Positions 30,395-31,130 of a DNA stretch of 64,000 nucleotides are shown here, piece after piece (position 1 is the stretch's first letter; each line of letters begins with the position of its first letter). The position numbers and the translations under genes were made by a program. The stretch lies in NCBI RefSeq assembly GCF_054482595.1, contig NZ_CM137008.1. One strand, 5' to 3'. The notes beneath the pieces were generated by a model. That model was not told the origin of the DNA, searched no databases, and was given only the letters and a program-made list of their open reading frames with translations.

Positions 30395-30445
30395 TGACTT
30401 CATACTGTGATGTCATACTATTGATGTCATAAAGTGAAGTCATAA
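30395..30445 (+). promoter_or_regulatory. Four tandem direct repeats TGAnnTCATA(C/A), putative operator/promoter of the hicAB-like operon
   Basis: tgacttcatac (30395), tgatgtcatac (30408), tgatgtcataa (30422), tgaagtcataa (30435), spaced 13-14 bp, ending 10 nt before the toxin ATG. Confidence 0.5.
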
Positions 30446-30454
30446 GGACATGCC

Positions 30455-30730
30455 ATGAGAACCAAGGTACAGGCTTTACGGAAGAAACAAAAAAATACAT
30501 TGGATCAAATATTTAAATCTCCTGTTCCTCAAGGGATCAAGTGGTCTGATATAGAGTCACTGGTTAAAGCATTAGGCGGAGAAATTAAGGAAGGAAGAGG
30601 TTCGCGTTGTAAGTTCATACTAAATATGAGCGTTGCGTGTTTCCATCGGCCTCATCCGTCGCCAGATACCGATAAAGGCGCTGTAGAAAGCGTGCGTGAC
30701 TGGTTACTAAGTATAGGGGTAAAACCATGA
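30455..30730 (+). CDS. HicA-family toxin-like protein (putative mRNA interferase)
   Basis: 91 aa; motif …KEGRGSRCKF…HRPHPSPDTDKGAVESVRDWLLSIG resembles the HicA core (GSH..F…HP.K…G.L); 4 nt ATGA overlap with the downstream gene. Confidence 0.6.
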   Translation: MRTKVQALRKKQKNTLDQIFKSPVPQGIKWSDIESLVKALGGEIKEGRGSRCKFILNMSVACFHRPHPSPDTDKGAVESVRDWLLSIGVKP

Positions 30731-31086
30731 TCAAACTGAAGACGCCAAACTCTATGGAGATTGCCGGGCAACCTGCTGTTATCACTTACGTGCCAGAACT
30801 GAATGCATTTCGTGGCAAATTCCTGGGCTTGTCAGGTTATTGTGATTTTGTCTCTGACAGCATTCAGGGGCTGCAAAAAGAAGGGGAACTTTCCCTGCGA
30901 GAGTATCTTGAGGATTGTAAAGCTGCGGGTATTGAGCCGTATGCGCGTACAGAAAAGATTAAGACCTTTACGTTACGCTATCCAGAATCGCTGAGTGAAC
31001 GCCTTAATAATGCGGCTGCGCAGCAACAAGTCTCTGTTAATACCTATATTATTGAAACACTGAATGAGCGTTTGAATCATTTATAA
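30727..31086 (+). CDS. HicB-family antitoxin-like protein with C-terminal ribbon-helix-helix
   Basis: 119 aa; C-terminus SLSERLNNAAAQQQVSVNTYIIETL is RHH-like; translationally coupled to the upstream toxin-like ORF. Confidence 0.6.
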   Translation: MIKLKTPNSMEIAGQPAVITYVPELNAFRGKFLGLSGYCDFVSDSIQGLQKEGELSLREYLEDCKAAGIEPYARTEKIKTFTLRYPESLSERLNNAAAQQQVSVNTYIIETLNERLNHL

Positions 31087-31089
31087 CTT

Positions 31090-31130
31090 ATAGCGGCCCA
31101 ACAATTTCTGTTGCGCCGCTATATTTTTGT
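31090..31130 (+). terminator. Intrinsic terminator downstream of the hicB-like gene
   Basis: 8 bp stem atagcggc / gccgctat followed by atttttgtgg. Confidence 0.5.

Follow-up and report, generated by a model that had tools for sequence, protein, structure and literature searches.

A probable HicAB toxin-antitoxin operon of Escherichia coli whose toxin belongs to a clade with arginine in place of the essential histidine

Between the ABC transporter permease gene yhhJ and an accessory phosphotransferase system (PTS) island, a 64,000-nucleotide stretch of contig NZ_CM137008.1 (assembly GCF_054482595.1; the whole stretch is called the window here, and positions count from its first letter) carries two small overlapping genes, hicA and hicB, that probably constitute a chromosomal, autoregulated type II HicAB toxin-antitoxin operon with a HicB of the ribbon-helix-helix (RHH) type. 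We put the probability of this reading at about 0.6, and it is supported by homology, by fold and by a conserved regulatory architecture. Because the toxin gene comes first and the DNA-binding domain is an RHH, the pair falls into class 4 of the HicA modules (Gerdes 2024; PMC10865869). In practice an explanation for the locus exists already: it is annotated as a HicAB-type module, which is found beside nikR in related enterobacteria as well, and nothing about it is specific to the PTS island. Its only unusual aspect is that its toxin belongs to a large clade of HicA proteins with arginine in place of the essential histidine.

A compact operon encoding HicA-like and HicB-like proteins

The original prediction, made from the letters of the window, had proposed two overlapping open reading frames (ORFs) of 91 and 119 aa with homology to HicA and HicB, an RHH at the C-terminus of the second protein, and a terminator hairpin downstream, all of which held up. 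Both frames are present and have the tetranucleotide ATGA (30727-30730) in common, forming a compact, translationally coupled two-gene operon with a promoter-like site and a terminator of its own, and the hicA-hicB pair is unbroken in all genomic contexts examined. The window is 99.8-100% identical to E. coli O157:H7, and the features of the locus are as follows, with the two flanking genes, which lie outside the module, given last for context.

30394..30421, + strand: predicted sigma-70 promoter, with -35 TTGACT at 30394-30399, a 16-bp spacer and -10 TACTAT at 30416-30421 (consensus scan, 9/12 matches)
30395..30445, + strand: putative HicB operator, four boxes in two pairs (pattern and repeat searches, cross-genus enrichment)
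30444..30448, + strand: Shine-Dalgarno AAGGA, 6 nt ahead of the hicA ATG (read from the sequence)
30455..30730, + strand: hicA-like toxin gene, 91 aa (motifs G49-S50-R51 and F63-H64-R65-P66-H67-P68)
30727..31086, + strand: hicB-like antitoxin gene, 119 aa (Pfam, family profile, Foldseek, RefSeq WP_000593555.1)
31089..31128, + strand: intrinsic terminator, 5-nt loop on a 14-bp stem that has one internal mismatch, then UUUUU (RNA folding)
29258..30382, + strand: yhhJ, ABC transporter permease, upstream flank (RefSeq annotation of a 99.8%-identical O157:H7 record, ORF list)
31136..31996, - strand: class II aldolase, first gene of the convergent PTS/kinase island (ORF list, RefSeq annotation)

Homology to HicA rests on a Pfam match of the first protein to PF07927 (E = 3.7e-9, residues 30-80) and on a match to PHROG 8887, annotated as 'toxin' (E = 2e-26); fold searches support it too. 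In the predicted model, a two-helix N-terminal extension (about residues 1-29) leads into an alpha1-beta1-beta2-beta3-alpha2 core, the fold resembling a domain for double-stranded RNA binding (dsRBD), as is expected of a HicA. The extension, encoded at 30455-30541, is modelled with high confidence; its residues T15, L16, F20, P23, I28, K29 and W30 are conserved across the clade, members of about 84 aa start near residue 8 of the window toxin, and the toxin of strain 94EC carries the variants F20V and S22T. A profile search of 1.84 billion representatives of 50%-identity clusters recovered relatives of the toxin in 2,420 clusters at E <= 1e-3 and in 991 at E <= 1e-10.

The second protein matches PF05534 (E = 3.5e-15, residues 60-112), with weaker matches to Arc and CopG, and the KTFTLRY strand of its C-terminal RHH is invariant in the family. 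Its model (predicted local distance difference test score, pLDDT, 85) consists of four strands and a long helix (residues 9-67) followed by helices at 87-99 and 104-118. Foldseek gave HicB structures as its top matches, namely 6g26_B (probability 1.0), 6u0i, 4p7d and 4p78_A, and the C-terminus in addition matches Arc and AtaR. The match to the N-domain of 4p78_A had a template modelling (TM) score of 0.58 and a root-mean-square deviation (rmsd) of 3.6 A at 20% identity, with Foldseek E-values of only about 0.02-0.2. The four strands followed by a helix in the model are unlike the beta-beta-beta-alpha-beta order given for the HicB N-domain (PMC10865869), and no Pfam model matches residues 1-59. 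Among PDB sequences, the family profile found Arc (E = 0.03) and AmrZ (E = 0.035), and a single-sequence search of solved structures returned Arc only (E = 0.27); neither search gave a significant sequence match to any solved HicB. Both proteins already bear corresponding RefSeq names, type II toxin-antitoxin HicA family toxin (WP_001259385.1) and HicB family antitoxin (WP_000593555.1).

HicA is maintained as a protein. Comparisons among E. coli, Citrobacter, Dickeya and Serratia showed 34-42 silent against 14-23 amino-acid-changing differences in hicA codons, with dN at 0.09-0.18 and dS saturated; owing to this saturation of synonymous sites, dN/dS by the NG86 method was not computable, and we relied on the raw codon counts. 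The excess of silent over replacement differences and the low dN at saturated dS indicate that HicA is under purifying selection, and both HicA and HicB are conserved across genera despite saturated silent-site change.

At the downstream end, the hairpin at 31089-31123 folds with -21.2 kcal/mol (z = -4.9 against shuffled sequences) and runs into the UUUUU tract. It had been overlooked by a simple scan on account of the internal mismatch in its stem, and was confirmed by direct folding. A search of 30200-31300 against Rfam matched no RNA family.

Paired boxes over the predicted promoter

The pattern TGANNTCATAM, of which about 0.9 occurrences are expected per 64 kb, occurs four times in the window, at 30395, 30408, 30422 and 30435 (spacings of 13, 14 and 13 bp). 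Together they fall inside 51 bp, a clustering far beyond chance. The first box begins 12 bp after the stop codon of yhhJ, and the boxes proper are:

30395-30402, + strand: box 1, TGACTTCA (sequence)
30408-30415, + strand: box 2, TGATGTCA (sequence)
30422-30429, + strand: box 3, TGATGTCA (sequence)
30435-30442, + strand: box 4, TGAAGTCA (sequence)

A repeat search found a 24-nt unit recurring at 27 bp, so that the boxes of the window are to be read as two pairs. The same emerges from a comparison of eight loci (E. coli, Citrobacter, another Enterobacteriaceae lineage, Dickeya, Serratia, Xenorhabdus, Rahnella and Leminorella), in five of whose seven non-E. coli members the flanking genes are unrelated to those of E. 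coli. The conserved unit is the 8-bp box TGA(C/A)(T/G)TCA, with consensus TGACTTCA or its complement TGAAGTCA. Exact TGAnnTCA boxes number 24 in the 880 bp that make up the 110 bp upstream of hicA in each locus, against 13 in the remaining 49.4 kb, a 104-fold enrichment (Poisson P ~7e-40). Within a pair the spacing is fixed at 13 bp across genera; the two pairs lie 27-28 bp apart in E. coli, Citrobacter, Dickeya and the other enterobacterial lineage, and 39-40 bp apart in Serratia, Rahnella and Leminorella. In most genera, the two boxes of the promoter-proximal pair form an inverted repeat, TGACTTCA-N5-TGAAGTCA. The four-copy direct-repeat operator initially proposed is therefore accurate as to the four repeats of the window, whereas the conserved arrangement is one of 8-bp boxes in two pairs, the proximal pair being mostly inverted.

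The boxes are interleaved with the predicted promoter. In the window, the -35 element lies in box 1, the -10 element directly follows box 2, and boxes 3 and 4 occupy the space between the -10 element and the Shine-Dalgarno sequence; by eye, the Citrobacter upstream region has the same layout (TTGACT, 16 bp, TAAAAT). At the longer-spaced loci, box 2 contains a -35-like hexamer and box 3 is immediately preceded by a -10-like one, again as judged by eye, such that the box overlapping the -35 element shifts from box 1 to box 2 with the wider pair spacing (loci L009, L013 and L014 compared with the window). Because orthologues in six other genera have conserved these boxes upstream, the reading of the repeats as an operator is now backed, and it is plausible that they constitute the HicB operator, at which RHH dimers would repress transcription.

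Taken together with the protein assignments, the proposed mechanism is that HicB dimerises via its RHH domain, binds the box pairs over the -35 element, the -10 element and the transcription start, and would thereby repress the operon, while its N-domain would bind and mask HicA. Upon depletion of HicB, free HicA would bind RNA through its dsRBD-like fold, cleave it and arrest growth.

Arginine at the position of the essential histidine

Two residues of HicA are essential to its RNase activity, a histidine with which beta2 begins and a glycine two residues ahead of it (PMC12297915). The window toxin has the motif G49-S50-R51-C52-K53-F54 at this point, with beta2 of the model beginning at residue 51, and the family profile aligns R51 with the histidine of RGSH in the solved HicA 9svk_A, in a match that is weak overall (E = 0.27). 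The catalytic histidine of the GSH motif is thus replaced, as had been suspected from the letters GSRCKF, and the replacement is family-wide: in an alignment of the best 150 profile matches plus the query, position 51 is arginine in 146 of 151 sequences and histidine in one, and the essential glycine of the beta1-beta2 turn (G49) is retained in 149, besides being invariant in the family alignment A1. Two further histidines are nearly invariant. They belong to the motif FHRPHP, on or just past the neighboring strand, of which H64, P66 and H67 are kept in 148, 148 and 147 of the 151 sequences. Judging from this alignment, the change from histidine to arginine is a fixed, selected trait of a large subfamily and not decay of the window copy.

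As GSR and FHRPHP are almost invariant and place a polar cluster at the former active site, this site looks remodelled rather than relaxed. With the two residues 57-58 forming the turn, the beta2-beta3 hairpin sets residue 51 opposite residue 64, which would put H64 beside R51 on the same face of the sheet. We therefore entertain, tentatively and at somewhat less than even odds, the idea that the GSR/FHRPHP clade is a HicA lineage with a mechanism of its own, its catalytic histidine having shifted from the beginning of beta2 to the end of beta3. In such a lineage, the near-invariant His64, possibly with His67, would carry out catalysis, and Arg51 would stabilise the phosphate or bind the transition state. 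If true, the relocated histidine could alter the cleavage chemistry, the substrate or the mode of inhibition by HicB.

Distribution on plasmids and phages

Relatives of the toxin at 35-52% identity occur in 223 plasmid and 51 phage records, nearly all of them beside an annotated HicB. Plasmid carriers include Piscirickettsia, Sinorhizobium, Rhizobium, Deinococcus and Enterobacter, the phage carriers are Ralstonia phages and Burkholderia phage ST79, and in PHROG both proteins are filed under morons or auxiliary genes. One record filed as a plasmid in PLSDB, NZ_OL790696.1, is a 4.8-Mb E. coli sequence whose hicA is 98.9% identical; this is almost certainly a misfiled chromosome, and the 'Escherichia' plasmid count for hicA is consequently inflated.

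This distribution bears on a role that would be compatible with the toxin-antitoxin mechanism, namely that the module serves mainly in abortive-infection defense against phages or in the exclusion of competing mobile elements. The occurrence of the clade on Ralstonia and Burkholderia temperate phages and on many plasmids, the PHROG classification, and the argument that HicA modules act in phage defense (Gerdes, PMC10865869) all point in this direction. However, no PADLOC defense model matches, and the E. coli copy sits amid housekeeping transporter genes, not in a defense island, such that we consider defense a possible but rather unlikely main role for it.

A natural toxin-null allele

Strain 268.2, which carries hicAB without the PTS island, has an altered copy (locus L005, 4084-4417, corresponding to window 30383-30730). 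Exactly one 14-bp repeat unit is deleted, so that three boxes remain, and codons 1-2 of hicA are ATG TAA, the frame being open from there on. The 5' part of the gene is 81% identical to the window over 177 bp and the 3' part, together with hicB, is 100% identical, which suggests that hicA of this strain is a recombination mosaic. A single HicB protein accession is common to the 268.2, O157:H7 and 94EC records. Of 5,426 complete E. coli genomes, 787, an O104:H4 strain among them, carry the diagnostic 177-bp segment at >=99% identity. The Prokaryotic Genome Annotation Pipeline (PGAP) annotation of 268.2 gives a 76-aa product starting from a CTG codon that has no visible ribosome-binding site, and the repeat deletion recreates a promoter layout, TTGACT, 16 bp, TAAAGT.

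Loss of the toxin with retention of the antitoxin is the order of decay expected when the toxin is active, and we count it as indirect support for toxicity. It also bears on the alternative that the HicA-like protein is not a nuclease at all but a non-cleaving, RNA-binding or regulatory partner, for example one that modulates DNA binding by HicB, in which case the pair would be a small regulatory module. Folds of the dsRBD type can bind RNA without cleaving it, the histidine that is essential in characterised HicAs is arginine in nearly the whole alignment, and the E. coli module is chromosomal, lies beside nikR in other enterobacteria too, and is often lost, all of which would fit such a role. 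Against it stand the near-invariance of GSR and FHRPHP with their polar cluster at the former active site, the pairing of the clade with HicB on plasmids and temperate phages, and the finding that it is the toxin gene that was knocked out first in the 787 genomes (hicB is intact in the example read). We judge the non-nuclease alternative unlikely.

Variation of the interval between yhhJ and nikR

In the window, the order of genes is yhhJ, hicA, hicB, the convergent island and nikR; the island comprises a class II aldolase, HPr, an FGGY kinase, PTS IIC, IIB and IIA and a GntR regulator (at about 36745), beyond which lies nikR. Counted over the same 5,426 genomes, the interval takes at least four forms:

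Type a, yhhJ-hicAB-island-nikR: 581 genomes
Type b, yhhJ-hicAB-nikR, without the island: 1,492 genomes
Type c, yhhJ, about 90 bp of sequence resembling repetitive extragenic palindromes (REP), island, without hicAB: at least 489 genomes
Type d, yhhJ, the same REP-like sequence, ISEc1/yhhI, RhsB: K-12/DH1

Citrobacter has yhhJ-hicAB-nikR, and another enterobacterial lineage has hicAB-nikR after a different upstream gene; hicAB therefore predates the island and is an old resident beside nikR, and the island and the Rhs element came later or replaced it. Since each of the four combinations of hicAB and the island is found, the module is not dependent on the island and does not protect it.

Sequence common to island-bearing and island-less (type b) loci ends at about 31097, in the left arm of the terminator just past hicB. 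In genomes lacking hicAB, the REP-like palindromic sequence follows directly after the yhhJ stop codon (L002 3084-3175, L004 4082-4165, at the place of window 30383 onward), reading CCGATGCGTA...TACGCATCGG, then GCCGCATCCGGC or GGCCGGATAAGGCG, and is present whether the PTS island or ISEc1/RhsB comes next. Because both hicAB-less arrangements have the same REP-like stretch, it and hicAB are alternative fillings of one slot. The C-terminus of the aldolase is HRLVRKAS (861 nt) in the presence of hicAB and HRLVK (852 nt) in its absence (window 31136-31150, L002 3174-3190); given this difference between arrangements, the right-hand breakpoint lies within the last aldolase codons.

The original prediction was correct in placing the module between yhhJ and the PTS island at a site filled by other DNA in K-12 (in DH1, ISEc1/yhhI and RhsB). 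Its further proposal, that the module has a stabilising effect on the adjacent island or serves as the mark of an integration hot spot, draws on the variability of this interval and on the end of similarity just past hicB, but is very improbable, as hicAB is older than the island, occurs more often without it than with it (1,492 against 581 genomes), is absent from at least 489 genomes that have the island, and has been lost from the K-12 type, which nevertheless carries other inserted DNA.

Two side observations concern the records themselves. The stop codon of yhhJ (30380-30382) is TGA in the window and TAA in strains 94EC, 268.2, 10035776-3 and DH1. Several public records call the HicA-like protein 'hexulose-6-phosphate synthase' (proteins P0052, P0057, P0060 and P0079; NZ_CP045209.1) and one HicB homologue (P0162) a 'DNA repair protein', names that look like propagated misannotations.

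Strength of the toxin-antitoxin assignment

Several points weigh against reading the locus as an active HicAB operon. The histidine essential in every characterised HicA is missing from the window toxin (the characterised S. meliloti HicA, for example, retains it), and the proposal that His64 may serve as the catalytic residue comes from the strand register of a predicted model only. Our literature search found no toxicity, RNase or DNA-binding study on any member of the GSR/FHRPHP clade. The toxin has no significant E-value match to any solved HicA: a single-sequence search of solved structures returned nothing, and the family profile gave only the weak match to 9svk_A described above. Neither NCBIfam nor PADLOC has a model matching the pair. 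Finally, the 13-14-bp spacing sets adjacent boxes on different faces of the DNA helix. An alignment of the family with E. coli K-12 HicA by hhalign was discarded, having produced a spurious 15-column match of the family's helix alpha2 to helix alpha1 of K-12 HicA.

We nonetheless favor the toxin-antitoxin operon as the explanation of the locus, and its interest lies in the clade to which its toxin belongs, which raises the question of whether there is more than one active-site solution among HicA toxins or whether this clade is not a nuclease. E. coli alleles provide comparison strains for this purpose, with an intact hicAB, with a hicA that has a stop at codon 2 together with three boxes, and with no module. 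The putative four-box operator, with its fixed spacing within pairs and variable spacing between them, likewise lends itself as a neat model of DNA reading by an RHH antitoxin.

Comparison with known systems

The closest points of comparison are HicA3/HicB3 of Yersinia pestis (4p78, 4p7d), HicAB of Burkholderia pseudomallei (6g26) and HicBA of Streptococcus pneumoniae (5yrz), all of which have an RHH-type HicB and belong to class 4 (Gerdes 2024). Like these, the window module has the toxin gene first, overlapping genes, an alpha-beta-beta-beta-alpha toxin core with the glycine of the beta1-beta2 turn, and putative operator repeats that overlap the promoter. Unlike them, its clade has arginine for the essential histidine at the start of beta2, a FHRPHP motif of its own and an N-terminal extension of about 22-29 residues; the window HicB is short, at 119 aa, and the putative window operator consists of four 8-bp boxes in two pairs.

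The HicA/HicB pair of E. coli K-12 (6hpb) is a separate locus, with a toxin of 58 aa that has the catalytic histidine. It differs also in that its HicB has a helix-turn-helix in place of an RHH, which puts it in class 3 (PMC10865869).

Repressors of the Arc/MetJ/CopG type resemble the window antitoxin in its C-terminus, which aligns with Arc (E = 0.03) and AmrZ, and differ in that the window RHH is fused to a putative toxin-binding HicB domain. RHH repressors bind short repeated boxes as cooperating dimers; the box spacings of Arc and MetJ differ from the 13 bp of the window.
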